64,000 nucleotides of DNA from Candidatus Falkowbacteria bacterium (GTDB lineage Bacteria > Patescibacteriota > Patescibacteriia > UBA11705 > JABHMO01): NCBI GenBank assembly GCA_018674305.1, contig JABHAL010000004.1:128446-192445 (forward strand). Reading direction: 5' to 3'. The notes beneath the pieces were generated by a model. The model saw only the letters and a list, made by a program, of their open reading frames with translations, was not told the origin of the DNA and made no database searches. Of this stretch, positions 3,361-55,700 are shown piece by piece (within the stretch, counting starts at the first letter, position 1; every line of letters starts with the position of its first letter). The translations under genes were made by a program, and so were the position numbers.

Positions 3361-3915
3361 TTAGAAATGACCTTTTAAATCTTTTAAATCAAGTTTCTCA
3401 ATGATTAAATCATTACCAATGACTTTTAAATTTGGATTGACCGGCACAGGGTTACAACCACCTTTTTCGGTGGCTATTTTTTCCAAAGGATACTTATTAC
3501 CGCAAGTGTTGCACACCATATTATTTCCTTCCTGACGGAACCCCATTTTCGCATCAGCACAAACCTGGCAGGCATTCCCCGCAGCACGATATATTCCGTT
3601 TTTGTCTTTAACTACAAAAAAGTAAACCATGTCACCATCTAATTCCACATTATAATAATGAGCCTTACCATCATCAAAAATCGCTTTACTTAATTTAATC
3701 TGATCATTTTCGAAAATAACTGGATCTCCGGCCTCTCCAGTAAAGGTCGCTTCTTGGGGCTTGACTGTAGGTTTTGGTTGAATTGACTTTTGAAAAGAAC
3801 TTGCACTGGAGGTTTTACTTTCAGAGCTTGATTTGGCAGCTGGCTTCTCAGTACAACCACTTACAACTCCAGCGACCAACAGCACTAATACAAAAATCCA
3901 TACTTTGTTTTTCAT
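3361..3915 (-). CDS. Lipoprotein with C-terminal Cys-rich (zinc-ribbon-like) putative metal-binding domain
   Basis: Signal peptide plus lipobox LVAGVVSG|C; C-terminal CQVCADAK...CNTCGNKY...GGCNP motif cluster; adjacent to csoR and HMA genes. Confidence 0.5.
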   Translation of the reverse strand: MKNKVWIFVLVLLVAGVVSGCTEKPAAKSSSESKTSSASSFQKSIQPKPTVKPQEATFTGEAGDPVIFENDQIKLSKAIFDDGKAHYYNVELDGDMVYFFVVKDKNGIYRAAGNACQVCADAKMGFRQEGNNMVCNTCGNKYPLEKIATEKGGCNPVPVNPNLKVIGNDLIIEKLDLKDLKGHF

Positions 3916-10859: not shown

Positions 10860-11786
10860 TTACTTAAATAACATTCTAATTATATCACGTCCAGGAAATC
10901 TTGACTTACCCAAATGAGGATAATGATGCAAAACAACATGTGGTCGTGGATTTACTTCAATAATAACGCCTTTGTCGCTGGAAATGTCTTCAGTTAAAAC
11001 ATCAACTCCAGCGCTAGCTAACTTCAAAGCTCGACAAGCTTCAATAGCAACGCTTTTTAATTTATCTGAAATTTGCTCTGTACAATCAATACTTGTACCA
11101 CCTTCTGCAACATTAGCTGCATTTCTTAAAAAAACTTTTTCACCTCTTGCAGGAATACTATCAAAAGTATACCCCCTAGACGCTAAAATCTTTTCAGATT
11201 TTTCGTCCAACTTGATATCTTTTTTGTATTTCTTCTTTATCTTATTTTTCTTTTTTACTAACCATTCAACATCATGCTTGCCGTCACCTTCCACAAAAGC
11301 TGGTACTCGCTTTACTACATACACATGTTTATAATCAATCACCGTAACCCTATAATCATCCCCTGGAACAAACTCTTCTATTAATACTTTCTTACCATAC
11401 TTTTTCGCAAATTTAAAAGCTTTTTTCAGGTTTTTTAATGTTGTTACTCCAACTGTCACTCCTTTTCCCAAAGAAGATTTATTAGGCTTAACAACCACCC
11501 GTTTATGTCTTCGATAAAACGCCAAGAGTTCACTATAATTAGTTACTAGTTTTTGTTTTGGGACCGGCAATCCGAAAGTTTTTAAAACATCAACTGTCAT
11601 CATCTTATTATCTGCCAAAAGATAACTAAGTCTACTGGTAAACTCGGTGGCAGATCGATTAATCAATCTAGTTTGCCTTCCCTTGCTCACGACATGTAGA
11701 GCACCTTCTGGATCAAATTTAGCAAAACGAAGACCCAGGCTTCGAGCTGAATTTCTTAGCACCTTAACGTGAGCTGGTTCTCTCAT
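10860..11786 (-). CDS. ATP-grasp ligase paralog D (cyanophycin-synthetase-N-terminal / RimK-like fold)
   Basis: KPNKSSLGKGVTVGV, EEFVPGDDYRVTVIDYKHV and GVIIEVNPRPHVVLHHYPHLG ATP-grasp motifs; start overlaps the stop of paralog C by 4 nt. Confidence 0.6.
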   Translation of the reverse strand: MREPAHVKVLRNSARSLGLRFAKFDPEGALHVVSKGRQTRLINRSATEFTSRLSYLLADNKMMTVDVLKTFGLPVPKQKLVTNYSELLAFYRRHKRVVVKPNKSSLGKGVTVGVTTLKNLKKAFKFAKKYGKKVLIEEFVPGDDYRVTVIDYKHVYVVKRVPAFVEGDGKHDVEWLVKKKNKIKKKYKKDIKLDEKSEKILASRGYTFDSIPARGEKVFLRNAANVAEGGTSIDCTEQISDKLKSVAIEACRALKLASAGVDVLTEDISSDKGVIIEVNPRPHVVLHHYPHLGKSRFPGRDIIRMLFK

Positions 11787-18636: not shown

Positions 18637-19641
18637 ATGCAGGCACTTCGTGAACAATTTGATTCACAAAATCTTTATCAAGTGATTGCCGACTTACCAA
18701 AGCAGTTTACAACTGCCTTTACTGAAACAGATCTTAGCATTGACAAGAAAACCACCAAAATAGTTTTTTGTGGTATGGGAGGCTCTGCCTTACCAGCCAA
18801 TCTTTTGAAAACTTTTTTAGCAACAGCTAAAACAAATTTTAATATTCCTTTTAAGATCAACCGCGACTATTCTCTACCACAGGTGGTAGATGAAAACTGG
18901 TGCGGTTTTTTTGATTCTTATTCAGGAAATACAGAAGAGACCTTATCTGCAATAGAAGAAGCAGAAACCAAAGGCCTAAAACAAATTGTAGTTCTGGCAC
19001 ATGGCGGAAAGCTAGAAAAAATAGCTCAAGAAAAAGGATATAAGTTCATTAAAATTCCGGACACCAAACAACCACGTATGGCCTACGGCTACGTAATGGG
19101 CGCTCTACTGAAAGTTTTAGCCAATTCCGAGCTGGTAGACCTTAATTTCGCAGAATTAACCTCTGACGTGGAAAAAGCTTTATCTTCTGAGAAAGAAATG
19201 CAACTTCAGGCTGAGAAGTTAGCAAAATCTTTGCAAAATAAAATTCCAGTTATCTACACTTCCAACATCTGGAAGTATGTGGCGATGGTCTGGAAAATTA
19301 ATTTCAACGAAAATACCAAGACCCAAAGTTTTTGGAATGCTTTTCCAGAATTAAACCACAATGAAATGGTAGGCTACACCAATATTATTGGCAACTACAA
19401 GATAATTATATTAAAAGATCTAGAAGAACATGCTCACATTCAAAAAAGAATGGATGTTTTCCAGAAAGTACTTGCTGACAAGCTGGACATTGAAATAATC
19501 GATATGCAATCTGGCTCAGCTTTTTACAAACTGTTAAGTACTTTACTACTTGGCCAATGGACTTCCTACTATTTAGCCCTAATCAATAAAGTTGATCCTA
19601 CGCCTGTTGATTTAGTCGAAGAGTTCAAGAAACTGATTTAA
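18637..19641 (+). CDS. Bifunctional phosphoglucose/phosphomannose isomerase (archaeal-type SIS-domain PGI/PMI)
   Basis: SIS-domain motif CGMGGSALPANLL; ~330-aa two-SIS architecture typical of the TIGR02128-like family. Confidence 0.7.
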   Translation: MQALREQFDSQNLYQVIADLPKQFTTAFTETDLSIDKKTTKIVFCGMGGSALPANLLKTFLATAKTNFNIPFKINRDYSLPQVVDENWCGFFDSYSGNTEETLSAIEEAETKGLKQIVVLAHGGKLEKIAQEKGYKFIKIPDTKQPRMAYGYVMGALLKVLANSELVDLNFAELTSDVEKALSSEKEMQLQAEKLAKSLQNKIPVIYTSNIWKYVAMVWKINFNENTKTQSFWNAFPELNHNEMVGYTNIIGNYKIIILKDLEEHAHIQKRMDVFQKVLADKLDIEIIDMQSGSAFYKLLSTLLLGQWTSYYLALINKVDPTPVDLVEEFKKLI

Positions 19642-27195: not shown

Positions 27196-27290
27196 TAAAA
27201 ATATAAAACCGCCTCAACTATGTGATGCGGGTTACCATGATTCATAACAATTTATTTTCTATTCCTATCAATCTCCCCTTAGTCCAAAAG

Positions 27291-27377
27291 CGGAGGGCGT
27301 GAGATTTGAACTCACGGAACCTTTTCAGGCTCAACGCTTTTCGAGAGCGTCCCATTCAACCACTCTGGCAGCCCTCC
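27291..27377 (-). tRNA. tRNA-Ser (anticodon CGA), type II with long variable arm
   Basis: Minus-strand sequence GGAGGGCTGCCAGAGTGGTTGAATGGGACGCTCTCGAAAAGCGTTGAGCCTGAAAAGGTTCCGTGAGTTCAAATCTCACGCCCTCCG; anticodon loop CTCGAAA; CCA not encoded. Confidence 0.8.
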
Positions 27378-27456
27378 TTGATTGAAACGTCCACTGGAAT
27401 TAGCATGCCCCGTAATTACTGCGGGACAGCCCTCCACTTTTGGGCCAAGTAATAAT

Positions 27457-33445: not shown

Positions 33446-35485
33446 ATGGGTTACATTCTTTGGTTGGTGGTATCACTGATTCTGGCAATTGGGCCGTTTT
33501 TGGCCCCAGCACTGATTCCCAAATTCGAGATGGGAGGCCTGGCGCAATTCATTATGATGGCCTTTGGGATTGTTTCCCTTCTCATTCTGGCGATTGTGGT
33601 AGTTATTACAAAACTCTACCGCAAAACGTCAGCCGACATGGCCTTTGTGCGAACAGGCATGGGCGGGAAAAAGATTATCCTCGATGGAGGTATCTTGGTT
33701 ATTCCCGTCATCCACAAAGTCATCGAGGTCTCTTTGCAGACCATGCGGCTAGACGTTAAACGTGCAGGCAGAGAAGCTCTCATTACCGAGGACTATCTGC
33801 GTGGCAATCTTGAGGCAGAATTCTATATCAAGGTTCAGCCTGCAGACGAGGACATCGTCAGTGCCGCTCGTTCACTTGGTGATCGCTCGGTTGATCCGGG
33901 AACCATCAAGGACCTGGTATTTGAGAAGCTGGTATCTGCACTACGAACCGTGGCTGCGAAGTCTACGCTTTTCGCACTCAACTCTGAACGTGAAAAGTTT
34001 GCGGACGACGTGAAGAAAGCCGTAACCGAGGACTTGACGCACAACGGTCTGACGCTGGAAACAGTTACTGTTTCTCAGTTGGACCAGGCTGACATCAAGG
34101 ACTTTGATGAATCCAACGTGTTCGACGCCCAGGGTCGCAAGCGCGTAGCTGAGATTACTCAGGCTGCCCGTGTCGTTACCAATAAACTGGAGCGTGACGC
34201 TGAGCGCGACATCAAGGACAAGGACGTTGAGACTCGCAAAAAGGTCCTGACTCTCGAACTCGACCAGAAAAGGGCCGAGGCAGAGCAGGGACGTGACGTA
34301 GAAATGGCCAACTCCGAAGCCAAGCGTAAGGCCGATGAATTCGAGATCGAGCAGCAGGAAATTGTTGCCAAGCGTGAGATCGGCAAGGATCGAGCAGTTG
34401 AGCTCGAGAACGTGGACAAGGCTCGGAAGGTTGAGATCGCTGAACGCGACAAGGAAGCCGCGATTATCGATGCCGAGAAGAAGAAGGAACTGGCTGACAA
34501 GGCCCGTGAGCAGGCTGTCCGTGTAGCCGAGGTTGGACGTGACAAGGCACAGGCTCTGGCTGACCGTGACAAGGAAATTGAAATCGCGGCCAAGGAAGAA
34601 GAGCGCGCCAAGGCTGAGTCTGCCCGACTGGCCGCTGAGGCTCTCCGTGAAACCAATGAGCAGGCTGTGAAGACCGTCGAGGTCGTCGAGGCTGCTAAGC
34701 GTGACAAAGAGCAGCAGATCATTGCTGCCGAAGCCGACGCAGAGAAGAACTACGTAACCCTTCAGCGTAAGGCTGATGCTTCTGCCTATGAAGTCAAGAA
34801 GGATGCTGAAGCTCGTAAGGAAGCTGCAGAAGCTGACTTCTCCGCCAAGGTCAAGGCAGCTCAGGCCGTAGAGGAGACTCTGAAACGTGAGGCAGCTGGT
34901 AAGCAAGCTGCGGACATGGTGCCTGTACAGGTCGGATCCAAGCAGGTCGAAGTTGATCGCGCAAGTCAGATGATTGTGGTCGACGTGGCTGCCAAGCAGG
35001 TCGAAGTTGACCGCGCATCCGTGACAGTGAAGGACGCTGAAGTTGCTGTGGAGCGTAAGGCTTTGGAGCAGAAGGAAGAGTTCGGCCGTGCTGGTATCGA
35101 CTTGCAGATCACTCTGGCCAAGATCGAGGCCATGAAGGAAGTGGAAATCGCCAAGGCCACGGCGCTCGGTACGATGCTGAGCAATGCGGAAATGACGCTG
35201 TTTGGGGATCCCACCTCTGCTGCGGACATCGTTGGTAAGTACAACAACGCCATGGGAATTGGGAAGTCTCTCGAAGGCTTTATGGCCAGCATGCCCGAGG
35301 GTAGCGCTGCTCGTAAACTGGTCGATGGTGTCGTTGAAAAGGTTGGTGGACTGGCCGAAGCAGTATCTGATCGGCTGACTCAGGATGCACCGGCTGATGA
35401 TGCTCCTGCAACGACCGCTGCTCCGACTCCGCCCCCGACACCTGCCAAGAAGGCTCCGGTACCGCCAGTTGATCCTGCAAAGTAG
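33446..35485 (+). CDS. floT: Flotillin-like SPFH/band-7 protein (FloT-like)
   Basis: N-terminal TM, SPFH domain (FVRTGMGGKKII...), then ~350 aa of EA-rich coiled coil and a C-terminal flotillin-type tail; GC ~55-58% versus ~33% flanks. Confidence 0.8.
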   Translation: MGYILWLVVSLILAIGPFLAPALIPKFEMGGLAQFIMMAFGIVSLLILAIVVVITKLYRKTSADMAFVRTGMGGKKIILDGGILVIPVIHKVIEVSLQTMRLDVKRAGREALITEDYLRGNLEAEFYIKVQPADEDIVSAARSLGDRSVDPGTIKDLVFEKLVSALRTVAAKSTLFALNSEREKFADDVKKAVTEDLTHNGLTLETVTVSQLDQADIKDFDESNVFDAQGRKRVAEITQAARVVTNKLERDAERDIKDKDVETRKKVLTLELDQKRAEAEQGRDVEMANSEAKRKADEFEIEQQEIVAKREIGKDRAVELENVDKARKVEIAERDKEAAIIDAEKKKELADKAREQAVRVAEVGRDKAQALADRDKEIEIAAKEEERAKAESARLAAEALRETNEQAVKTVEVVEAAKRDKEQQIIAAEADAEKNYVTLQRKADASAYEVKKDAEARKEAAEADFSAKVKAAQAVEETLKREAAGKQAADMVPVQVGSKQVEVDRASQMIVVDVAAKQVEVDRASVTVKDAEVAVERKALEQKEEFGRAGIDLQITLAKIEAMKEVEIAKATALGTMLSNAEMTLFGDPTSAADIVGKYNNAMGIGKSLEGFMASMPEGSAARKLVDGVVEKVGGLAEAVSDRLTQDAPADDAPATTAAPTPPPTPAKKAPVPPVDPAK

Positions 35486-37484: not shown

Positions 37485-38870
37485 ATGGAAGATCAAAATG
37501 AGCAACTTTGGTTAGCTGTTCTTGGTGAACTTGAACTCTCCTTAAGTAAAGCCAGTTTTACCACCTGGTTAAAAAATACTTTTATTATAAAAAATGATGA
37601 AGGATGTATTGAGGTTGGTGTGCCTAATACTTTTTCACAAGCCTGGTTAAAACAAAAATACCACCAACAGATATACAAGATTATTCAAACAAAAAGCAAA
37701 GAGAGAATTAAAGAAATAAACTATAAAGTTCAAAGCTTAAAATCTTACAACAAACAAATAGATGAATTAAAGAAAACTGTTTCTACTCAAGAACAAATCC
37801 CAGAAGCTACCCAAAATGAAGTTCTCGCTAAGCAAACAAAAAAACAAGGACTCAATGTTAAATATCTTTTCGACTCCTTTATTGTTGGTAAAGCTAATGA
37901 ACTAGCTCACGCTGCAGCTTTAGCTGTGGCTGAAAAACCAGGATTAACTTATAACCCTCTTTTTATTTATGGTGGTGTTGGATTAGGAAAAACTCACCTA
38001 CTACAATCCGTTGGGCATGCCGTTTCACAAAAAAATCCTGAAAAAAAGATCGTTTATGTAACTTGTGAACAATTTACCAATGACTTTATAAGTTCAATTT
38101 CTTCTGGCCAGGCTGTTCGTTTTAATAATACTTACCGTACTGCTGATGTTCTACTAATTGATGATATTCAATTTTTAACTGGCAAAGAAGGAACTCAAGA
38201 AGCTTTTTTTCATACTTTCAATGATCTTCATCAGAGAGATAAACAGATTGTTATAACTTCTGATCGTCCACCAAAAGCTATTTCTACCCTAGAAGATCGT
38301 TTATTATCTCGTTTTGAATGGGGAATGATTGCTGATATTTCTCAACCTGATCTTGAAACCAGAATTGCCATTTTGGAAACTAAATGCCAAGAAAAAGAAT
38401 TTTTATTAGAAAGAGACATTATTCAGTACATCACCTTGAATATTCAAAATAATATTCGTGAACTCGAAGGTGCCCTAAATAAGATTATTGCTTACCATCA
38501 ATTAAATAAACTTGAACCTACTCTAGAAAATATCAAAAAGATACTATTTTCAATTTCTGAATCAAGTAAAAAGGGTGGTGCTGTTTCTGCAAAACAGCTA
38601 ATTGATTTGGTTAGTGGTTTTTATGAACTATCACTGGACGATATTCTAGGTAAAAGTAGAGAAAAAAGATTAGCTTTTCCTCGCCAAATCATAATGTATC
38701 TCCTTCGTGAAGAATTAAGCTGTTCATATCCAATGATAGGAAGTGAACTAGGTGGTCGAGATCACACAACTGCTATGCATGCTTACGATAAAATTTCTAG
38801 ATTAATTGCTGAAGATGAAAAATTGCGTCAAGAAATAAATTTAATCAAACAAAAGGTATATTCATCTTGA
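37485..38870 (+). CDS. dnaA: Chromosomal replication initiator protein DnaA
   Basis: AAA+ Walker A GGVGLGKTHL; Walker B LLIDDIQFL; sensor and DnaA signature regions; C-terminal HTH domain. Confidence 0.95.
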   Translation: MEDQNEQLWLAVLGELELSLSKASFTTWLKNTFIIKNDEGCIEVGVPNTFSQAWLKQKYHQQIYKIIQTKSKERIKEINYKVQSLKSYNKQIDELKKTVSTQEQIPEATQNEVLAKQTKKQGLNVKYLFDSFIVGKANELAHAAALAVAEKPGLTYNPLFIYGGVGLGKTHLLQSVGHAVSQKNPEKKIVYVTCEQFTNDFISSISSGQAVRFNNTYRTADVLLIDDIQFLTGKEGTQEAFFHTFNDLHQRDKQIVITSDRPPKAISTLEDRLLSRFEWGMIADISQPDLETRIAILETKCQEKEFLLERDIIQYITLNIQNNIRELEGALNKIIAYHQLNKLEPTLENIKKILFSISESSKKGGAVSAKQLIDLVSGFYELSLDDILGKSREKRLAFPRQIIMYLLREELSCSYPMIGSELGGRDHTTAMHAYDKISRLIAEDEKLRQEINLIKQKVYSS

Positions 38871-39126: not shown

Positions 39127-40254
39127 ATGAAAATCACATGTCTTCAAGAGAACTTAAACTTCGGGTTACAAACTACAGGACACCTTGTAAATAAAAATAT
39201 CAACTTACCTATCTTAAACAATGTACTGCTTGAAGCCAAGGAAGGAAGCTTGAAACTTTCTAGTACAAATTTAGAAATAGGGATTAGTAGTGTTGTTAGA
39301 TGTAAAGTTGAAAAAGAAGGAAGCTTCACAGTGGACGCAAGACTTCTGGCTGATTATGTTAATCTTTTAGCCAAAGACCAAGTTAATATGGAATTATTAG
39401 CAGATGATTTTATGAAGATAGCCTGTCTATCCTCTGAAACTAAAATGAAAGGAATTGTTGCTGATGATTTCCCAGTTATTCCTCAAATTGAAAAGAAAGA
39501 TCCGTTTACTATTAAAATCAGTGATTTTAAAAAAGCTCTATCGCAGGTTATATTTTCAGTAGCAAGTTCAGAAACAAGACCTGAAATAAGTGGTATTTTA
39601 ATGAACTTTAATAAACTTAGTAAAAACAAATTAGTAATGGTCGGAACTGATAGTTATAGGTTAGCTGAAAAATTTGTGGAATTAGAAAAGAATGAACAAG
39701 AACAAGAAGTTATAGTACCACTAAAAACTTTACAAGAATTACTTAGAATCCTTGGTAACTTAAAGGACAAGGCTGATACTCCAGAAAATTTGGAAATTTA
39801 TATTACCGAAAATCAAGTTCTATTTACTTGTGCTAATATTGAATTAATATCTAGACTACTTGAAGGACAGTATCCAGATTATAAACAGATTATTCCACAA
39901 GAAACAAAAACTAAGATTATTACCTCAACTTCAGAATTAGTTAAAGCTATAAAAAAAGTTGCCCTATTTTCCAAGACAGGAATATTTGATATTAATTTAG
40001 TGTTTGAAGCTCAAAAAGGATTAACTGTACAAGCTACAAACTCTCAACTTGGTGAAAGTAAAGCTGATATTGATGTTGAATTCACTGGTGAAACAAATGA
40101 TACAACTTTGAACTATAGATATTTACTTGATGGATTAAATAATGTTGATGCTAGCGAAGTTGAAATAAGTTTAGTCGATAATAATCTCCCCTGTTTAATT
40201 AGACCAAAAGGAACAACTGATTATTTGTATATTGTGATGCCTATTAAGCAGTAA
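39127..40254 (+). CDS. dnaN: DNA polymerase III beta subunit (sliding clamp)
   Basis: 375 aa beginning MKITCLQENLNFGLQ...; three-domain beta-clamp length and position after dnaA. Confidence 0.9.
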   Translation: MKITCLQENLNFGLQTTGHLVNKNINLPILNNVLLEAKEGSLKLSSTNLEIGISSVVRCKVEKEGSFTVDARLLADYVNLLAKDQVNMELLADDFMKIACLSSETKMKGIVADDFPVIPQIEKKDPFTIKISDFKKALSQVIFSVASSETRPEISGILMNFNKLSKNKLVMVGTDSYRLAEKFVELEKNEQEQEVIVPLKTLQELLRILGNLKDKADTPENLEIYITENQVLFTCANIELISRLLEGQYPDYKQIIPQETKTKIITSTSELVKAIKKVALFSKTGIFDINLVFEAQKGLTVQATNSQLGESKADIDVEFTGETNDTTLNYRYLLDGLNNVDASEVEISLVDNNLPCLIRPKGTTDYLYIVMPIKQ

Positions 40255-40438
40255 AAAGTTGAAAGTTTGTAAAGTTCATAAAGTAAAACATAAAATAAAA
40301 AACGCTCCGATGGTTATCGTGGGCGTTTTTGAATTATTGGTTTTCTGGGATCTGTTCGATCAGATTTATATCTTAGAGAATATTATTAATGGAAATATTA
40401 TTTGTCAATAAAAAATGCGGTAAGATACCGTATTTTTT

Positions 40439-40482
40439 ATGGCCGCGCCATTCGTAGCTCTGATGAAATACAGAGCGAAGAA
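40439..40482 (-). repeat. Conserved structured tRNA 3'-trailer element, copy a (two hairpins directly after the CCA of tRNA-Leu)
   Basis: Minus sense CCA-TTCTTCGCTCTGTATTTCATCAGAGCTACGAATGGCGCGGCCAT; ~95% identical to copy b at 40603-40645. Confidence 0.6.
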
Positions 40483-40570
40483 TGGTGCCTCGGGCCGGAA
40501 TCGAACCGGCACGGTTTATACAACCACTGGATTTTAAGTCCAGCGCGTCTACCAATTCCGCCACCGAGGC
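40483..40570 (-). tRNA. tRNA-Leu (anticodon TAA), CCA encoded
   Basis: GCCTCGGTGGCGGAATTGGTAGACGCGCTGGACTTAAAATCCAGTGGTTGTATAAACCGTGCCGGTTCGATTCCGGCCCGAGGCACCA; long variable arm; A73. Confidence 0.85.
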
Positions 40571-40602
40571 TTATTTAATGTAATGGATTGTCATGACTTG
40601 TT

Positions 40603-40645
40603 ATGGCTTGCCATTCGAAGCTCTGATGAAATACAGAGCGAAGAA
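40603..40645 (-). repeat. Conserved tRNA 3'-trailer element, copy b (after tRNA-Gly)
   Basis: CCA-TTCTTCGCTCTGTATTTCATCAGAGCTTCGAATGGCAAGCCAT. Confidence 0.6.
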
Positions 40646-40721
40646 TGGAGCGGGAGACGAGACTCGAACTCGCGACCTCAACCTTGGCAAGGTTGCGCTC
40701 TACCAACTAAGCTACTCCCGC
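40646..40721 (-). tRNA. tRNA-Gly (anticodon GCC), CCA encoded
   Basis: GCGGGAGTAGCTTAGTTGGTAGAGCGCAACCTTGCCAAGGTTGAGGTCGCGAGTTCGAGTCTCGTCTCCCGCTCCA. Confidence 0.85.
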
Positions 40722-40736
40722 ATAAATTTTTAATTT

Positions 40737-40984
40737 GATCGCAACCTTTTTAAATTCATTTGCGCTCTAACCAATCCCGATGATTTAGCAAAGCTAAATT
40801 TCGGGATCCCGACGAACAATGTGACGTCGGGACTAAGCTACTCCCGCATAATATTTTAAAAATCGCGCAACCTTTAAAAATTAATTTTTGTTTATTTGCG
40901 CTCTAACCAATCCCGATGATTTAGCAAAGCTAAATTTCGGGATCCCGACGAACAACGTGACGTCGGGACTAAGCTACTCCCGCA
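40737..40984 (-). repeat. Two tandem ~136-bp units (core 40758-40848 and 40894-40984, 1 mismatch). Each is a degenerate tRNA-Gly 5' half (GCGGGAGTAGCTTAGT...TTGGTTAGAGCGC) interrupted in the D-loop by a ~57-nt double-hairpin insert.
   Basis: Minus sense GCGGGAGTAGCTTAGT[CCCGACGTCACATTGTTCGTCGGG ATCCCGAAATTTAGCTTTGCTAAATCATCGGGA]TTGGTTAGAGCGC; lacks anticodon arm, T-arm and acceptor 3' end. Confidence 0.65.
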
Positions 40985-41030
40985 ATCAAATGTAAGGTCA
41001 TTATAGCAAAATTATTATGAATGTCAATAT

Positions 41031-41069
41031 AAAAAAAAGCCCCAGTAAGAGCTTTGTGTAAACTGGGAG
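41031..41069 (-). terminator. Intrinsic terminator for the minus-strand small ORF 41097-41291
   Basis: CCCAGT-loop-ACTGGG with T-run on the minus strand. Confidence 0.5.
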
Positions 41070-41096
41070 CTTTGTGATTTAATGTGGTAATGTAGG

Positions 41097-41291
41097 CTAC
41101 TTAAGCCAAGGGAAAGGATCCTTTTCCTTGGGTTCAATGAACGTCGTAAGAGGCTGAAAATCCGGCTTTATTTCCGGCGTCTGAATTCGTGCGAACTTTT
41201 TCCGTTCCATCTCCTCATGGACCAATGTCCTTCGCATGGTAGCAAGACCAACTCCAGTAAATTCGTTGTTTCCAAATTCATCTGCCATCAT
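41097..41291 (-). CDS. Hypothetical small protein (64 aa)
   Basis: ORF with its own terminator; no family recognised. Confidence 0.3.
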   Translation of the reverse strand: MMADEFGNNEFTGVGLATMRRTLVHEEMERKKFARIQTPEIKPDFQPLTTFIEPKEKDPFPWLK

Positions 41292-41353
41292 CCACCTCCT
41301 ATTATGTGAAAGTATTAAAATTATATAGAATAATTAATGTTTTGTCAAGGGCT

Positions 41354-41390
41354 AATAAAAAAGCTTCAAGTGGTGTGCTTGAAGCTTGGT
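41354..41390 (-). terminator. Intrinsic terminator for ORF 41403-41648
   Basis: AAGCTTCAAG-tggtgtg-CTTGAAGCTT with minus-strand T-run. Confidence 0.55.
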
Positions 41391-41402
41391 TTGTTGTTTG
41401 TT

Positions 41403-41648
41403 CTATAGTTCTCTCAGAAACTCGTTTTCTGTTATTTCTGCTCTTACCGCTAATGGCTTTTTATCAAAGGGAAGTTTTTCTTTGGCAACCTTTGCCGGTG
41501 CACTCAAGTGATCTGCCCTTTTTACAGCCATTGCTTTGGTGGTTGGATCAATAGGATCTTCTCTGAATGTATTCAGAACCAGATCTTCTGCTCGGTCTTT
41601 CATCCTTTGATCATGGTGTCTACGAAAGGTTTTGTCTCTCATACTCAC
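41403..41648 (-). CDS. Hypothetical small basic protein (81 aa)
   Basis: ORF with terminator; basic; no family recognised. Confidence 0.3.
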   Translation of the reverse strand: MSMRDKTFRRHHDQRMKDRAEDLVLNTFREDPIDPTTKAMAVKRADHLSAPAKVAKEKLPFDKKPLAVRAEITENEFLREL

Positions 41649-41764
41649 TCCTCCCCAAGGTTTCCAGCGATTGTACTTCAGAGTATATCAGAAGAAATAT
41701 AGGTTGTAAATATTAGAAAAAGAAAAAGCTCCAGTCGTGAGAGACTAGAACTTTTTGTGTTCAT

Positions 41765-42016
41765 TTAAGGAGAAGACATTGTAGCCAGAACTGCTTCATC
41801 ACGGGCTTGTCTGACATCAAAGGGAATAACTTCCAGTCCCTTCTCAATGTCCAATTCAGAGCCTGTTCCGCAGTGGAATACATGTATTCTTGAAGCTATA
41901 TTTGATTTTTCAAGAATTCCTATCAGGTCATAAACAGCTTCAGTTTTAGTAATAATCACTTCTCTACTTCCTCTGCCTTCGATATAAAATCTAATGCAGT
42001 ACATGAGTACCTCCAT
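41765..42016 (-). CDS. Hypothetical small protein (83 aa)
   Basis: ORF directly upstream of the second tRNA-Leu; no family recognised. Confidence 0.3.
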   Translation of the reverse strand: MEVLMYCIRFYIEGRGSREVIITKTEAVYDLIGILEKSNIASRIHVFHCGTGSELDIEKGLEVIPFDVRQARDEAVLATMSSP

Positions 42017-42036
42017 TTAAAGTTTGAGACAATTAG

Positions 42037-42120
42037 TGCCGGATGCGGGATTTGAACCCGCACGGGAATTACCCCAAGGGATTTTAAGTCCCCAGTGTCT
42101 ACCAGTTCCACCAACCCGGC
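42037..42120 (-). tRNA. tRNA-Leu (anticodon TAA), second divergent copy; no CCA encoded
   Basis: GCCGGGTTGGTGGAACTGGTAGACACTGGGGACTTAAAATCCCTTGGGGTAATTCCCGTGCGGGTTCAAATCCCGCATCCGGCA; long variable arm; A73. Confidence 0.75.
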
Positions 42121-42128
42121 ATTGAGAT

Positions 42129-42401
42129 CTATATTCGTTTCTTGTAGTAAAACCACTGAATAATAGTAATTGCCGAAAGACAAATGCCAATGGTGTCAGG
42201 AATCAAGATGTAGAAAGAATCAATTGTTATAGCATAACCAGCTCGAGAAAGATAAACTGCACAAGCTAAGACCGCTAATGTTAAAGGATTTCCACTTCTT
42301 TTTTCCTTGAAGTTTTTTAGCACTTGAGCTGAAAGCCCAAGAATAACCATGGCAATTCCAAATACCATGGTCATTGTTCCAAATATATTGGACCAATTCA
42401 T
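42129..42401 (-). CDS. Small membrane protein, hypothetical
   Basis: 90 aa, three hydrophobic helices. Confidence 0.4.
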   Translation of the reverse strand: MNWSNIFGTMTMVFGIAMVILGLSAQVLKNFKEKRSGNPLTLAVLACAVYLSRAGYAITIDSFYILIPDTIGICLSAITIIQWFYYKKRI

Positions 42402-42510
42402 GATATGCTCCTACATGGCTAGATGAAGTAAAATGAACATAGAACTAGCCACTATAGCATGAAAGGTATTTAATGTCAATATTTCTTACTTAATTTTAGC
42501 CCCGAAGGGG

Positions 42511-52668: not shown

Positions 52669-54720
52669 ATGTTATCTATTGGAATGATTTTTTTAATCGT
52701 AGTGAGTGTTTTTCTTTTGATGGTTGCATTTGTTGTTTTTCGTTCGGTGCACTTTATTGAGCCAAATGAAATTGGATTGGTGACTAAAAACTTTAGTTTG
52801 ACCGGTCGTAAAACCGAGGATGATTGTCCGGTAGCTTTTCTCGGTGAGGCTGGTTTTCAAGCGAAACTACTGATGCCAGGTTGGCGATTTAAGTTCTGGC
52901 CGGTATTTACAGTTGAAAAGCATCCTTGGGTGCAGGTTCCAGCTGGTGAAGTTGGTGTAGTTATTTCTCAAGTGGGAAAACCTTTGCCTCTCGATGCAAA
53001 ATCAGGTATTTACAAAGAGGTATTTGGTAACTTTAGTAATTTGAAAGGGTTTGTTGAAAATGGTGGTGAAAAAGGTGTTCAGCGTCCCGTACTCCCGCCA
53101 GGTACTTTGGCCCCGGTTCATCCGTTAGGATTTCTAGTTCTTACTAAGTGTCGTGTTTACGGTGTTCCAGTTGATACAGCAATGCAAAATAAAAAGAACC
53201 TTAAGGTTGAGGATTTTGGACTGGAGCCGGATCAGTTGAACGTTGTGCTTATTCGGCCGAAAAAAATTGAGGTTGGTCCTCGTAATGAAATGGATCATCA
53301 CAATCATATTGAACAGAACCGAAAAGTAGTTGATATGGTTGGCGTTATTACCACTTATGAAGGAAAACCACTGTCCGCTGGTGACATTGCTGGTCGGATT
53401 GGTGATTTTTCTGAGATTGATTATAGTGATGCAGAATTGGATGATAAAGAAATTATTGAGAAGGTTCTGGGTACGCAGAATGAGCAACATGATAACTATC
53501 AAAATTTCCAAAAGTTTTTAGATCTTGGTGGTAGAATTGGTCTTCAGCATGATCCAATTCTGTACGGTGCGTACAACTTTAATCCGTTCTTGATTAGTGT
53601 AGAAAGGGTTCCCATGTTGGTTGTTCAGCAGGGTGAAGTTGCTGTTATCAAAGCTTATGTTGGTCGCCCCAGCAAGGATATTTCTGGTCATGAGTTCAAG
53701 TTTGGATCTTTGGTACGTCCAGGCTGTCAGGGTATTTGGAGTTATCCGCTTCGGACAGGTAAGTATCCGATCAATCCACGTTGCTATGAAGCTGAGGTTG
53801 TGAAGACTTACATTCTTACTTTGAACTGGGCTAATGCTACTTCTGATGCTCATGATCTTGATTCTAGGTTGTGTCAGATTGAAGCCAAGAGTCGTGAAGG
53901 ATTTATATTTAAACTGGATCTGCAAGTTCAGATTCATGTGCCTGACACCAAGGCTCCGAAAGTTATTTCAATTGTGGGAACGATTCAGAATTTGGTTAAT
54001 GAAGTTTTGCAGGCGGCCGTGGGTAACCATTTTCGTGATAAATTGCAAAGTATTCCAGCGATTAAGTTCATTGAGACTCGTCAGCAAGTGCAGGAAGAAG
54101 CTTTTGAACATATCAAAACGCAACTTGCTCAATATGAAATTGAAACTAAGGGAGTGTTTATTCAGGACGTGGTATTACCCGCTGATATGGTTAAAGTTTT
54201 GACTCAGCGTGAGATTGCTCATCAGGAAATTGAGACGTTCAAAAAGCAAACCGAAGCTCAGGTCCAGAGAATTGAAACTGAGCGACAGCGAGGAATTGCT
54301 GATCAGCAGGCTGAACTGGCTCGTTCCAAAGTTAGTATTAACATTAAGGAGAATGAAGCCAGCGCTAGAAAGAAGCAGGCCGATGGTGAGGCGACGTTCA
54401 TTAGTGAGGTTGGTGCAGCTGAAGCTTCAAAGACCAGAGATATTGGTCTAGCGAAGGGTGAGTCTTATCAGAAGCAGGTTGAGGCTTTGGGGCAGATGGA
54501 AACTGCTATGGTTAATGCAGTTCAGGCTTTGGCTGAAGCTGGAACTAAGATTGTACCTGATACCTTGGTTGTTTCAGGTGGAGGTTCTAGCGGCAGTTTT
54601 GAGGGACTAGCAGCTACGTTAATGAAGTATGTTGGTAGTTTAAAAACACAACCGAGTGGAGGTTCGATTGTGGCTCCGAAAAAGGAAAAGAAGACTACTT
54701 CGCGGAAAAAGGCCGCATAA
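52669..54720 (+). CDS. Second flotillin-like SPFH-domain protein (683 aa)
   Basis: N-terminal TM; FVVFRSVHFIEPNEIGLVTKNF SPFH start; C-terminal flotillin-type coiled coil (QEIETFKKQTEAQVQRIETERQRG...) ending in Gly/Ser/basic residues. Confidence 0.7.
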   Translation: MLSIGMIFLIVVSVFLLMVAFVVFRSVHFIEPNEIGLVTKNFSLTGRKTEDDCPVAFLGEAGFQAKLLMPGWRFKFWPVFTVEKHPWVQVPAGEVGVVISQVGKPLPLDAKSGIYKEVFGNFSNLKGFVENGGEKGVQRPVLPPGTLAPVHPLGFLVLTKCRVYGVPVDTAMQNKKNLKVEDFGLEPDQLNVVLIRPKKIEVGPRNEMDHHNHIEQNRKVVDMVGVITTYEGKPLSAGDIAGRIGDFSEIDYSDAELDDKEIIEKVLGTQNEQHDNYQNFQKFLDLGGRIGLQHDPILYGAYNFNPFLISVERVPMLVVQQGEVAVIKAYVGRPSKDISGHEFKFGSLVRPGCQGIWSYPLRTGKYPINPRCYEAEVVKTYILTLNWANATSDAHDLDSRLCQIEAKSREGFIFKLDLQVQIHVPDTKAPKVISIVGTIQNLVNEVLQAAVGNHFRDKLQSIPAIKFIETRQQVQEEAFEHIKTQLAQYEIETKGVFIQDVVLPADMVKVLTQREIAHQEIETFKKQTEAQVQRIETERQRGIADQQAELARSKVSINIKENEASARKKQADGEATFISEVGAAEASKTRDIGLAKGESYQKQVEALGQMETAMVNAVQALAEAGTKIVPDTLVVSGGGSSGSFEGLAATLMKYVGSLKTQPSGGSIVAPKKEKKTTSRKKAA

Positions 54721-54877: not shown

Positions 54878-54944
54878 TGAAGTACATAGAAAAAGATACA
54901 AATTATTTATTGATATATTTTTCTATGACTTCAGGGTAAACCCT
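54877..54944. repeat. 17-bp-stem inverted repeat (CTGAAGTaCATAGAAAAA ... TTTTTCTATGACTTCAG) abutting the tRNA-Lys 5' end
   Basis: Arms read at 54877-54894 and 54928-54944 around a 33-nt AT-rich loop. Confidence 0.55.
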
Positions 54945-54998
54945 ATTTTAAGTAAATTCTTTAATATATATTTTTATGACTTTAGAGTAATCTTTGTT

Positions 54999-55262
54999 TT
55001 AATTATTAGACTGAAGCGTTTTTCTTAGCATATGTTTTAAGGCTCTTTTTCCGGCTGTAGTTTTCAAATAGTTTTCTCTTCTAGTTGCATCTTGTTCATT
55101 AGTATAGGCTTCAAAATATATTAAATCAAGAGGAATCCTGGGTTTTGTTGATTGAACTAAGCCATTGTTATGTCTTCGTGTTCGTTCATGTGGATCATTA
55201 GGAGTAAAACCTGTATACAACAAGGAATCTTTTTGACTTTTTAGGACATATACAAAAAACAT
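54999..55262 (-). CDS. GIY-YIG nuclease-superfamily protein (YhbQ/COG2827-like), located among the tRNA genes
   Basis: MFFVYVLKSQKDSLLYTGFT...RRHNNG...LIYFEAYTNEQDATRRENYLKTTAGKRAL; start reassigned to the internal Met (track 54999..55301). Confidence 0.7.
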   Translation of the reverse strand: MFFVYVLKSQKDSLLYTGFTPNDPHERTRRHNNGLVQSTKPRIPLDLIYFEAYTNEQDATRRENYLKTTAGKRALKHMLRKTLQSNN

Positions 55263-55312
55263 AGGAATGTTTAATAATGAAAAATCCTCATGGCAAACCA
55301 TAATTAAGTTGA

Positions 55313-55359
55313 TTATGGTTTACCATGAAGTCATGACGTAAGGTCATGTACTTCATGGT
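55313..55359 (-). repeat. Conserved tRNA 3'-trailer palindromic hairpin (GGTTTACCATGAAGTCATGACGTAAGGTCATGTACTTCATGG), copy after tRNA-Arg; overlaps the encoded CCA
   Basis: ~16-bp stem; paralogous element at 55483-55531 after tRNA-Ala. Confidence 0.6.
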
Positions 55360-55431: not shown

Positions 55432-55482
55432 ATAATATGTTTTTGTTTTTAAAAGAGCGGAGTAATCCTTTTGCTAAGGGAG

Positions 55483-55531
55483 TGGTTTACCATGTAGTCA
55501 TGCGTGGCATGTACTACATGGTGGACCCGAC
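55483..55531 (-). repeat. Conserved tRNA 3'-trailer palindromic hairpin, copy after tRNA-Ala
   Basis: GGTTTACCATGTAGTCATGCGTGGCATGTACTACATGG. Confidence 0.6.
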
Positions 55532-55605
55532 TGGGGTCGAACCAGCGACCTCTTGCATGCCATGCAAGCGCTCTAACCAACTGAGCTACGGGCCCTCAAG
55601 GTGTA
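55529..55605 (-). tRNA. tRNA-Ala (anticodon GGC), G3:U70 present, CCA encoded
   Basis: GGGCCCGTAGCTCAGTTGGTTAGAGCGCTTGCATGGCATGCAAGAGGTCGCTGGTTCGACCCCAGTCGGGTCCACCA. Confidence 0.8.
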
Positions 55606-55700
55606 CCGGATTTTAATTTGAGATCTTACCGATGGCTATCAGGACGTTCTGACCAACCCCGAAGGGGCCCCTTTGGGGCTGAGCTACGGGCCGAAAATGT
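55606..55700 (-). repeat. Degenerate tRNA-Ala 5'-half copy (GGCCCGTAGCTCAG) interrupted by a GC hairpin insert (CCCCAAAGGGGCCCCTTCGGGG) before TTGGTCAGAACG, directly upstream of tRNA-Ala
   Basis: Minus sense ...TTTTCGGCCCGTAGCTCAG[CCCCAAAGGGGCCCCTTCGGGG]TTGGTCAGAACG...; same architecture as the tRNA-Gly-derived repeats. Confidence 0.55.

Follow-up and report, generated by a model that had tools for sequence, protein, structure and literature searches.

Why should the 5′ end of a tRNA gene recur, broken off by GC-rich hairpins, directly in front of an intact copy of the same gene? The question is raised by a 64,000-nucleotide (nt) stretch of DNA from a Candidatus Falkowbacteria bacterium of the Patescibacteria (contig JABHAL010000004.1, positions 128,446 to 192,445; hereafter the window), in which such interrupted 5′ halves, here called pseudo-tRNAs or relics, stand upstream of tRNA-Gly, tRNA-Ala and tRNA-Ser. 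An earlier note on this DNA had described this architecture at all three genes; we found it again at tRNA-Gly and tRNA-Ala and, in weaker form, at tRNA-Ser. Our analysis indicates that the observation is real and statistically solid, that what the window preserves is most likely a set of inert scars, and that these point to a recurrent break-and-replace process at tRNA genes of Patescibacteria that is apparently undescribed. The tRNA-associated features of the window described below lie on the minus strand, as do all seven of its tRNA genes.

Two hairpin-bearing units precede tRNA-Gly

The intact tRNA-Gly(GCC) gene (40646-40721) is preceded by two tandem pseudo-tRNA-Gly units. Unit 1 (40848-40983, delimited by sequence and alignment) is 136 nt long and consists of tRNA positions 1-16 (40968-40983), a double hairpin (40911-40968) and positions 17-30 (40896-40910). 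Unit 2 (40722-40847, delimited by sequence) has the same anatomy, with its hairpins at 40775-40832 and positions 17-30 at 40760-40774; it measures 126 nt, and is thus shorter than the 136 bp first given for both. Each unit begins with GCGGGAGTAGCTTAGT, an exact copy of positions 1-16, and in each, as previously described, these positions are followed by a 57-nt insert that forms two perfect hairpins, namely TCCCGACG-10 nt-CGTCGGGA and then TCCCGA-20 nt-TCGGGA. The two hairpins have the arms TCCCGA/TCGGGA in common. The tRNA sequence resumes after the double hairpin with TGGTTAGAGCGCAA, which corresponds to positions 17-30 plus one extra T. An AT-rich palindrome then occupies the place of the anticodon loop, followed by AAGGTTGCG, the 3′ strand of the anticodon stem, and by an AT-rich spacer. 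Given this trace of the anticodon stem, the copies reach to about position 43-51 and do not, as had been supposed, decay before the anticodon arm.

A promoter consensus for the Gly-Leu tRNA operon (41000-41027; TTGACA, a 16-nt spacer and TG-n-TATAAT) agrees with the sigma-70-type consensus at 12 of 12 positions, and 16 nt separate its end from position 1 of unit 1. Because this consensus lies upstream of unit 1, both units are probably transcribed, as the leader of a pre-tRNA. The units differ from one another at 1 of 90 core positions, and their AT-rich spacers differ by 4 substitutions in 33 positions plus four indels (p = 0.018). Judged by sequence, the pair is consistent with a recent unequal crossover and later slippage within AT runs. 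Selection on the core was considered and rejected, as the contrast with the spacers is weak and consists mostly of indels.

Shorter relics precede tRNA-Ala and tRNA-Ser

The pseudo-tRNA-Ala (55622-55692), delimited by alignment and by a fresher homologous copy in the sister lineage L220, reads GGCCCGTAGCTCAG + CCCCAAAGGGG + CCCCTTCGGGG + TTGGTCAGAACG from 55692 to 55645. Its parts are positions 2-15 of the tRNA (55679-55692), a double hairpin made of CCCCaaaGGGG and CCCCttcgGGGG (55657-55678), TTGGTCAGAACG (55645-55656), a decayed hairpin that replaces the anticodon arm (TCCTGATAGCCATCGGTA; 55627-55644) and AGATC (55622-55626). The intact tRNA-Ala(GGC) follows at 55519-55595. The pseudo-tRNA-Ser (27388-27435) is a short remnant, of which the relative L224 has a fuller counterpart. 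It comprises GGAGGGCTG, corresponding to positions 1-9 (27427-27435), a weak hairpin of the form TCCCG..CGGGG (TCCCGCAGTAATTACGGGG; 27408-27426) and CCAGTGGACG (27388-27397), and it lies upstream of the intact tRNA-Ser(CGA) at 27290-27377. The Ser copy breaks after position 9, so the three loci do not have the common insertion point at about position 14-16 that the earlier note had proposed. Arms of the TCCCG...CGGGA type connect the Gly, Ala and Ser relics within this species group.

The similarity of these relics to tRNA 5′ ends exceeds chance: gapped alignment against shuffled sequence gave z = 10.3 for Gly and 7.7 for Ala, with only 1.8 for Ser, where the chance of the exact 9-mer is ~4e-4 as estimated from base composition. 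At a random site, the probability that a GC-rich hairpin begins within 0-3 nt is ~0.005, and one was seen at 3/3 fragment ends in the window. A search for further tRNA fragments across the 64 kb found none, and TCCCG...CGGGA hairpins within the window were confined to the Gly units.

Classification of the relics

The relics are significantly similar to, and collinear with, part of a cognate tRNA but lack a complete fold, and tRNA pseudogene is the only class definition that covers them. ARAGORN detected only the seven intact tRNAs of the window, and Rfam only six. With Rfam, the whole window at gathering score and the Gly region at E <= 10 yielded tRNAs only; the Gly units had no RF00005 match even at E <= 10, and they have neither a T-arm nor a 3′ acceptor strand. 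Group I introns (RF00028) were absent from the window at gathering score and from the Gly region at E <= 10, with the 3′ exon part missing, and no group I intron signal was found in loci L220, L224 and L036 at E <= 1. Integrase attachment sites have a different organization from that seen here, where the duplicated part is the 5′ end, the bracketed DNA of 54-120 nt contains no open reading frame (ORF) and the neighbouring ORFs that were scanned are not recombinases. Bulge-helix-bulge geometry was not seen by eye, without a formal search, at the junctions of an interrupted tRNA gene in another genome (L083, described below), and the Gly units have no 3′ half.

Several other candidates were discarded. 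A CRISPR-like array is not indicated by only two units with no cas genes seen, integron attC sites would lack an integrase and stand in the wrong context, and a T-box or riboswitch had no Rfam match. Derivation of the hairpin arms from the tRNA's own acceptor stem fits Gly alone, and no consistent tetranucleotide precedes the hairpins as would a REP-like GTAG signal.

The units are lineage-specific

For comparison we used 80 dnaN-centred loci from GTDB genomes (~1.4 Mb, with 98 tRNAs counting the window) and considered relatives with DnaN identities of 83% (L087-L089), 78% (L005) and 69% (L007). Two further relatives were placed by RNase III: L220, a sister lineage (97% amino acid (aa) and 87% nt identity), and L222 (82%). 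In the 83%, 78% and 69% relatives the same tRNA-Gly occurs without the units. In L087 and L005 it directly follows a TTGACA/TATAAT consensus, and the L087 gene is identical in sequence to that of the window, which indicates that the live window gene is a vertical ortholog and that the units were gained in the window lineage. In a 96% relative the contig stops exactly at the 5′ end of tRNA-Gly, as happens when repeats interrupt assemblies. The strain of the window is also present in many metagenomes, and its contigs are identical to one another and hence uninformative on variation in copy number.

The pseudo-Ala has a different history. In L220 it reads GGGCCCGTAG [hairpin TCCCGCCgatGGCGGGA] CAAGCTCAGTTCA [hairpin TCCCGCCatcGGCGGGA] TTGGTTAGAGCG [hairpin TCCCGATGgaCATCGGGA] AGGTCAGTGGTTTCC..., followed by the live tRNA-Ala. 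All three hairpins are perfect; the first two are one 17-mer in opposite orientations, and the third exactly replaces the anticodon arm, with a loop that resembles an anticodon loop. In the window, the homologue of this third hairpin and positions 16-27 have decayed by about 20%, and the D-loop hairpins differ between the two lineages. No pseudo-Ala is present in L222. Its presence in the window and L220 and not in L222 implies that it arose before the window and L220 split; by sequence comparison it is decaying in the window, with hairpins gained, lost or replaced since that split.

Remnants and nested tRNA genes recur across Patescibacteria

The same architecture was found in other Patescibacteria at tRNA-Asp, tRNA-Arg, tRNA-Ala, tRNA-Ser and tRNA-Cys. 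The 5′-end 12-mer of a tRNA recurred upstream of the gene in 5/98 cases, and in none downstream or on the reverse strand. Exact 9-mer tallies were 3/0/0/0 for 5′ ends and 0/4/0/0 for 3′ ends, with 3′-end 9-mers occurring downstream of 4/98 tRNAs and never upstream. The related loci, about 85 in number, thus follow a rule: 5′ remnants occur solely upstream of the live tRNA, 3′ remnants solely downstream, and GC-rich hairpins stand at the breaks. This polarity, the break-point hairpins and the recurrence in other Patescibacteria bear out the suggestion of the earlier note that a recurrent process, rather than random decay of duplications, is at work. The expectation of a single insertion point did not hold, with breaks after positions 9, 10, 13, 15/16, 17, 19, 21/22 and 23/24, in the anticodon loop and in the T-loop. 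A tRNA-Asp remnant (L077) comprises positions 1-13 and then a double hairpin, two tRNA-Arg 5′ remnants (L072 and L026) also break after position 13, and the remnant in L061 breaks after position 19. Among 3′ remnants, the insert is in the T-loop in L058 and in the anticodon loop in the tRNA-Cys of L036. Three tandem tRNA-Lys units and one tRNA-Gly copy in L007 have a conserved T-loop motif in common. These L007 units (18800-19046 and 11700-11764 (-)) are 80 nt long and consist of an AT-rich spacer, GAGAAGCCnnCCCTGAGTCGC in the T-loop and the last 20 nt of the tRNA including CCA; a GIY-YIG ORF comes after the Lys array.

Four loci contain nested tRNA genes (minus strand: L083 1908-2080, L055 4790-4990, L026 690-900 and L068 4740-4890), in which a complete tRNA-Ala(CGC) or tRNA-Arg(CCT) interrupts the D-arm of an earlier gene for the same isoacceptor, inserted at 21/22 or 23/24. 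Inverted repeats rich in GC, such as CCTGCCCGCC...GGCAGGCGGG, bound the inner tRNAs. In L083, where the outer gene is otherwise intact, and in L055 and L026, the 5′ and 3′ pieces of the outer copy complement each other exactly; the outer 3′ part of L068 has decayed heavily. The outer acceptor strands in L055 and L026 pair with each other, differ from those of the inner gene and match live tRNA-Arg acceptors of other genomes. Between these two loci, from genomes with 70% DnaN identity, the inner flanks are identical at 36/38 positions and the inner tRNAs at 65/73. We take these features to indicate a site-specific cassette that brings along a replacement tRNA of its own. No consistent target duplication was seen at the junctions.

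A palindrome, CTAATATTAG (often GCTAATATTAGC), is also markedly over-represented in AT-rich spacers around tRNA-Arg(CCT) and tRNA-Ala at many Patescibacteria loci. It has 24 matches in 19 loci (L026 940-1070 and 18 others) and none in the window, with ~0.09 expected per 64 kb, and may be a protein-binding site.

GIY-YIG nuclease genes are linked to tRNA genes

A GIY-YIG cassette (54878-55358) fills the exact interval from the CCA of tRNA-Arg to G1 of tRNA-Lys. It contains an 87-aa ORF (54999-55262; PF01541, E = 6e-14) and is flanked by inverted copies of a ~45-nt hairpin module (55314-55358 and 54878-54945). The tRNA-Arg/tRNA-Lys junction is filled in the window and in L222, and empty in L220, where it reads CCA-T-GGG with a single T. 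An ORF with a GIY-YIG domain and presence or absence at a precise site between relatives are the two properties examined for a homing-endonuclease cassette, and both were found. In the 1.49 Mb screened, 6/6 GIY-YIG ORFs lay 4-197 nt from a tRNA, a proximity expected by chance for ~5% of ORFs on a rough estimate, and further GIY-YIG ORFs called in L224/L225 are tRNA-adjacent too. In all, homologues adjoin tRNAs in L222, L220, L036, L054, L007 and L224/L225.

In three of these cases a nuclease gene, a broken tRNA and a live tRNA stand together. L220 has a pseudo-tRNA-Arg (positions 1-36, a double hairpin in the anticodon loop and positions 37-43), followed by a GIY-YIG ORF with an in-frame stop and the live tRNA-Arg. 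In L224/L225, a pseudo-tRNA-Ser (positions 1-43, with a D-loop insert and an anticodon-loop double hairpin) is followed by an intact GIY-YIG ORF, then by a promoter and the live tRNA-Ser, which differs from the pseudo-Ser in the allele of its acceptor and anticodon stems. In L036 a GIY-YIG ORF is followed by tRNA-Cys, a double hairpin and the 3′ fragment of an old tRNA-Cys, in which compensatory differences are seen. The small single-domain GIY-YIG genes are the best candidates for making the breaks in tRNA genes. Two ORFs with DUF559, a Vsr-like endonuclease domain, were also noted, one 327 nt downstream of the nested tRNA-Arg in L026 (48-434 (-)) and the other in the neighbourhood of the Ser locus in L227 (2035-2433).

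Some hairpins belong to dispersed families

Whether the hairpins are mobile in their own right bears on the miniature element that the earlier note had put forward as one mechanism. This idea holds in part: some hairpins belong to dispersed families, but the three inserts of the window do not represent copies of a single element. Hairpins like CCTGCCCGCC...GGCAGGCGGG, without cargo, occur in two 53%-GC IMG/VR contigs, and one of them is identical at 31/32 positions to the T-loop insert of L058. The 32-nt GC-rich hairpin concerned (…ATGCTTCGCAACGCGAGGCAGGCGGG) is at 265-300 in L058, a 37%-GC Patescibacteria genome, and at 1697-1728 in L211 as well as in L215. Identity of 31/32 between a 37%-GC genome and a 53%-GC contig suggests horizontal spread of this palindrome family. 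A scan of viral contigs for the CCTGCCCGCC..GGCAGGCGGG cassette returned only the cargo-less hairpins in the two 53%-GC contigs and chance matches, and a scan of viral contigs for the Gly hairpin gave 0 matches.

The double hairpin of L026, TCCGCCnnnGGCGGA-T-CAGCCnnnGGCTG, is identical at 21/22 positions in the rpmH leader of L038 and has variants in L067, L005 and the pseudo-Ser of L224. Hairpins of this type were observed at L038 5918-5947, L067 about 3799-3830, L005 14812-14841 and L073 9389-9417, just 3′ of promoter-like -10 boxes; in L038 and L067 they are within the leader of rpmH (ribosomal protein L34). Rfam at E <= 10 returned no match for the L211 hairpins or the L038 leader. The inserts of the window's Gly, Ala and Ser relics have no second copy within the 64 kb or ~1.4 Mb of relatives. 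A metagenome scan for CGTCGGGATCCCGAN{15,30}TCGGGAT gave at least 119 matches in unrelated, GC-rich contigs (mean 65% GC) and is uninformative on the copy number of the Gly hairpin. We identified no RAYT-type transposase, though no systematic protein scan of the genome was made.

A separate set of hairpins follows the live genes: in the Gly-Leu and Ala-Arg operons a hairpin stands after every tRNA, with the tRNA's own CCA forming the start of its 5′ arm. These trailer hairpins begin at the CCA of tRNA-Gly (40603-40648), after tRNA-Leu(UAA) (gene at 40483-40570, second module copy at 40447-40485), at the CCA of tRNA-Ala (about 55482-55521) and after tRNA-Arg (55315-55358), and form the subfamilies CCATTCTTCG...CGAATGGCAAGCCAT and CCATGAAGTACATG...CATGACTTCATGGTAAACCAT. 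Solo copies of the ~45-nt module of the GIY-YIG cassette stand after tRNA-Ala and tRNA-Arg, and the second subfamily after tRNA-Gly and tRNA-Leu. In L087 (83%) trailer hairpins are missing after tRNA-Gly and tRNA-Leu, and in L085 (96%) the tRNA-Leu trailer is of a different subfamily.

Origin of the relics

How, then, did broken 5′ halves come to stand before live tRNA genes? Our best explanation, to which we would give about an even chance of being right, is that they are non-functional remains left where selfish cassettes and miniature palindromes have repeatedly broken and replaced tRNA genes. A resident tRNA gene would be broken at or near an arm loop, and the break would be repaired by inserting or copying DNA that supplies an intact tRNA just downstream. 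Survivors would be only those outcomes that keep one working tRNA copy under the old promoter. The GC-rich palindromes could be the foldback ends of inserted cassettes or else miniature palindromic elements that settled in the gene copy once it was dead, and the nuclease genes would have been lost later, leaving the present state of the window. As the old promoter stays in place, the remnants would probably be transcribed as a structured 5′ leader, which an RNase P cut at +1 of the live tRNA would remove.

Several observations weigh against this explanation. The three window inserts have no common sequence beyond their TCCCG/CGGGA-type ends, and the metagenome matches listed for the Gly double hairpin (at least 119) are random GC-rich sequence rather than further copies in this genome. 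As the live tRNA-Gly of the window was inherited vertically, the Gly locus does not show replacement by a foreign copy, and it is equally well explained by partial tandem duplication, hairpin insertion and one unequal crossover. Perfect hairpins and the pristine pseudo-Ala of L220 could reflect selection rather than youth or gene conversion. No nuclease gene lies beside the Gly, Ala or Ser relics of the window, and within 500 nt of nine nested or fragment-bearing tRNAs elsewhere the only nuclease ORF is the DUF559 endonuclease of L026. Finally, the 87-aa GIY-YIG proteins have no recognisable DNA-binding domain of known homing endonucleases.

Four other accounts were compared with breakage and replacement. 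A functional leader RNA, in which the tRNA 5′ mimic guides or times pre-tRNA processing, protects the 5′ end from 5′-dependent RNases or acts as a decoy for a tRNA-binding enzyme or nuclease, could draw on the probable co-transcription from the consensus promoter, on predicted folding that beats shuffled sequences (z = -5.2 for Gly and -3.3 for Ala), on the core of the Gly units (1/90 differing against 4/33 plus indels in the spacers), on the L220 pseudo-Ala, pristine though its flanking gene is only 87% identical in nt, and on the like double hairpins in the L038 and L067 rpmH leaders and before GIY-YIG ORFs. We nevertheless consider a function rather unlikely: the units are missing from close relatives with an identical tRNA, the pseudo-Ala of the window is visibly decaying, the sequence, number and position of hairpins vary by locus and sister lineage, Rfam gave no match even at E = 10, and the spacers owe their greater divergence mostly to indels of the slippage type within AT runs. 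Of two further mechanisms in the earlier note, a processed leader structure is a probable fate of the relics, given the promoter consensus upstream, and not their origin, given their absence from close relatives with identical tRNA; nothing points to an aborted tRNA-primed (reverse-transcription) process. Plain partial tandem duplication with neutral decay, the hairpins being later unrelated events or chance, would need only selection for one intact copy to place 5′ pieces upstream and 3′ pieces downstream, and it has in its favour both the resemblance of the Gly pair to a recent unequal crossover and the precedent of E. coli tyrT, where tandem 178-bp repeats each contain a tRNA 3′ end. It looks improbable in view of a hairpin at every fragment end, far above chance (~0.005 per site), and of a spacer before the live tRNA that lacks the homology to the native leader which duplication predicts. 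Nor can it yield nested, exactly complementary outer halves of different alleles, and it leaves the GIY-YIG association unexplained.

The remaining two accounts borrow from known systems of other kinds. Attachment-site scars would arise if a small element with a copy of the tRNA 5′ end and a site-specific recombinase had integrated repeatedly, giving tandem direct repeats of positions 1-16. Known integrases duplicate the 3′ part of a tRNA and leave kilobase-sized elements, whereas the duplication seen here is of the 5′ part and the 'element' spans just 54-120 nt; moreover, tRNA positions 17-30 within the block are unexplained, and no integrase was found among the ORFs scanned near the relic loci (the whole window was not scanned). 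Even with direct tRNA repeats of 9-16 nt bounding each inserted block, tandem arrays (two Gly units in the window, three Lys units in L007) and tRNA fragments being a known by-product of element integration (PMC9897764), we regard such scars as very improbable. Disrupted functional tRNA genes of the archaeal kind, with hairpins as introns or with 5′ halves trans-spliced to distant 3′ halves, deserve next to no credence as a general account. Short GC-rich structured inserts at D-loop and anticodon-loop positions do resemble those of Thermoproteales and Nanoarchaeum (PMC4033280 and PMC3218864), and the outer tRNA of L083 is complete but for its insert. By eye, however, the L083 junctions show no bulge-helix-bulge geometry, a group I intron signal was absent at E <= 1, the genome belongs to a bacterium, and the units are not recognised as tRNA by ARAGORN or Rfam. 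For the window itself, archaeal-type genes are excluded by the missing 3′ half (no T-arm and no 3′ acceptor strand) and by the intact cognate tRNA 60-260 nt away.

More tentatively, and with doubts that outweigh our confidence, breakage and replacement may be the work of an undescribed class of selfish DNA in Patescibacteria specialised on tRNA genes. Its members would break the gene at an arm loop and bring their own replacement tRNA, some with a GIY-YIG nuclease and some with GC-rich foldback ends, and would have miniature palindromic derivatives. The 5′ halves in the window would then be footprints of a 'break-and-replace' homing that turns tRNA genes over horizontally.

Genomic setting of the window

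The window (~36% GC) includes rnpA-yidD, dnaA (37485-38870) and dnaN (39127-40254) and has a change in the sign of GC skew near 36-38 kb, which together identify it as the replication-origin region of a bacterial chromosome. A DnaN identical to that of the window carries the annotation Candidatus Falkowbacteria in public data. The Gly-Leu operon is separated from the unit upstream by a terminator-like hairpin (41036-41055), seen in the sequence, and is closed by another (40418-40430). This operon is inverted between relatives and, in the window, meets replication from the nearby origin head-on. Close relatives differ by rearrangement of the dnaN-spoU interval (window 40400-42500 compared with L087 11100-12700 and L005). 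A second tRNA-Leu(UAA) is at 42036-42120, with three small ORFs nearby that have no Pfam match. Elsewhere, a 4-kb island of 46-50% GC in this 35% GC genome (32000-36000) overlaps an SPFH/Band-7 gene (33446-35485) and may have been horizontally acquired; a second Band-7 gene is at 52669-54720.

Discussion

Which known system do these relics resemble? By analogy, the feature in the window works most like a homing-endonuclease footprint combined with colonisation by palindromic elements. Phage T4 has free-standing GIY-YIG homing endonucleases, notably SegB in its tRNA gene cluster. The GIY-YIG ORFs described here likewise lie between tRNAs and are variably present among relatives, with one copy degenerate, as expected of the life cycle of a selfish nuclease. 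They differ in that the proteins have 84-90 aa with PF01541 only, are encoded on a bacterial chromosome and, in the window cassette, are bordered by inverted hairpin modules; cleavage of tRNA genes by them is putative. REP/REPIN and bacterial miniature inverted-repeat elements are short GC-rich palindromes, sometimes doublets. Family members found here similarly occur at unrelated sites and in both orientations (the L220 17-mer twice, inverted), although the elements are as small as 17 nt and have conserved arms around a middle that ranges from 3 nt to a whole tRNA.

Other parallels are more distant. The tRNA duplications at attachment sites (PMC9897764) also leave a partial tRNA copy beside an intact gene after insertion of DNA into the gene; there, a 3′ part is duplicated together with kilobases of element and an integrase, whereas the window has a 5′ part 60-260 nt upstream with hairpins at the breaks, and the nested Patescibacteria cases hold a whole replacement tRNA rather than a fragment. 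GC clusters and double-hairpin or repetitive hairpin-forming elements of AT-rich mitochondrial genomes (PMC4478555 and PMC2800124) are scattered, mobile, short GC-rich palindromes, often double hairpins, that can sit in RNA genes; they are organellar and of high copy number, whereas those described here are bacterial, of low copy number (pseudo-tRNA sites only in 64 kb) and tied to tRNA arm loops. Archaeal split, permuted and multi-intron tRNAs (PMC4033280 and PMC3218864) have short GC-rich inserts at non-canonical positions and 5′ halves followed by GC-rich sequence; in our case the interrupted copy is truncated and has an intact gene next to it, no bulge-helix-bulge motif is seen by eye and the host is bacterial. 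Within the phylum itself, tRNA genes of Patescibacteria carry group I introns, occasionally with homing endonuclease genes (PMC13011429). Those tRNA genes are interrupted too, but they are functional and their inserts are catalytic RNAs, hundreds of nt long, in the anticodon loop, whereas the relics have hairpins of 17-57 nt in dead copies and no Rfam intron match.

In the literature we found no description of hairpin-interrupted 5′ tRNA remnants or of tRNA-in-tRNA nested genes in bacteria. The usual view is that tRNA genes are the most static loci of a genome and that Patescibacteria are streamlined, with little junk. If breakage and replacement is the correct explanation, the tRNA loci of this phylum would be hot spots of selfish elements that survive by carrying or regenerating the essential gene they destroy, and this would constitute a new route for the lateral replacement of tRNA alleles. 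Relics and nested genes would also confuse tRNA annotation and break assemblies, as where the contig of one relative ends at the repeat, and the widespread small single-domain GIY-YIG proteins would gain a candidate function. If the hairpin-bearing leaders were functional instead, they would represent a new kind of tRNA-derived cis-element.

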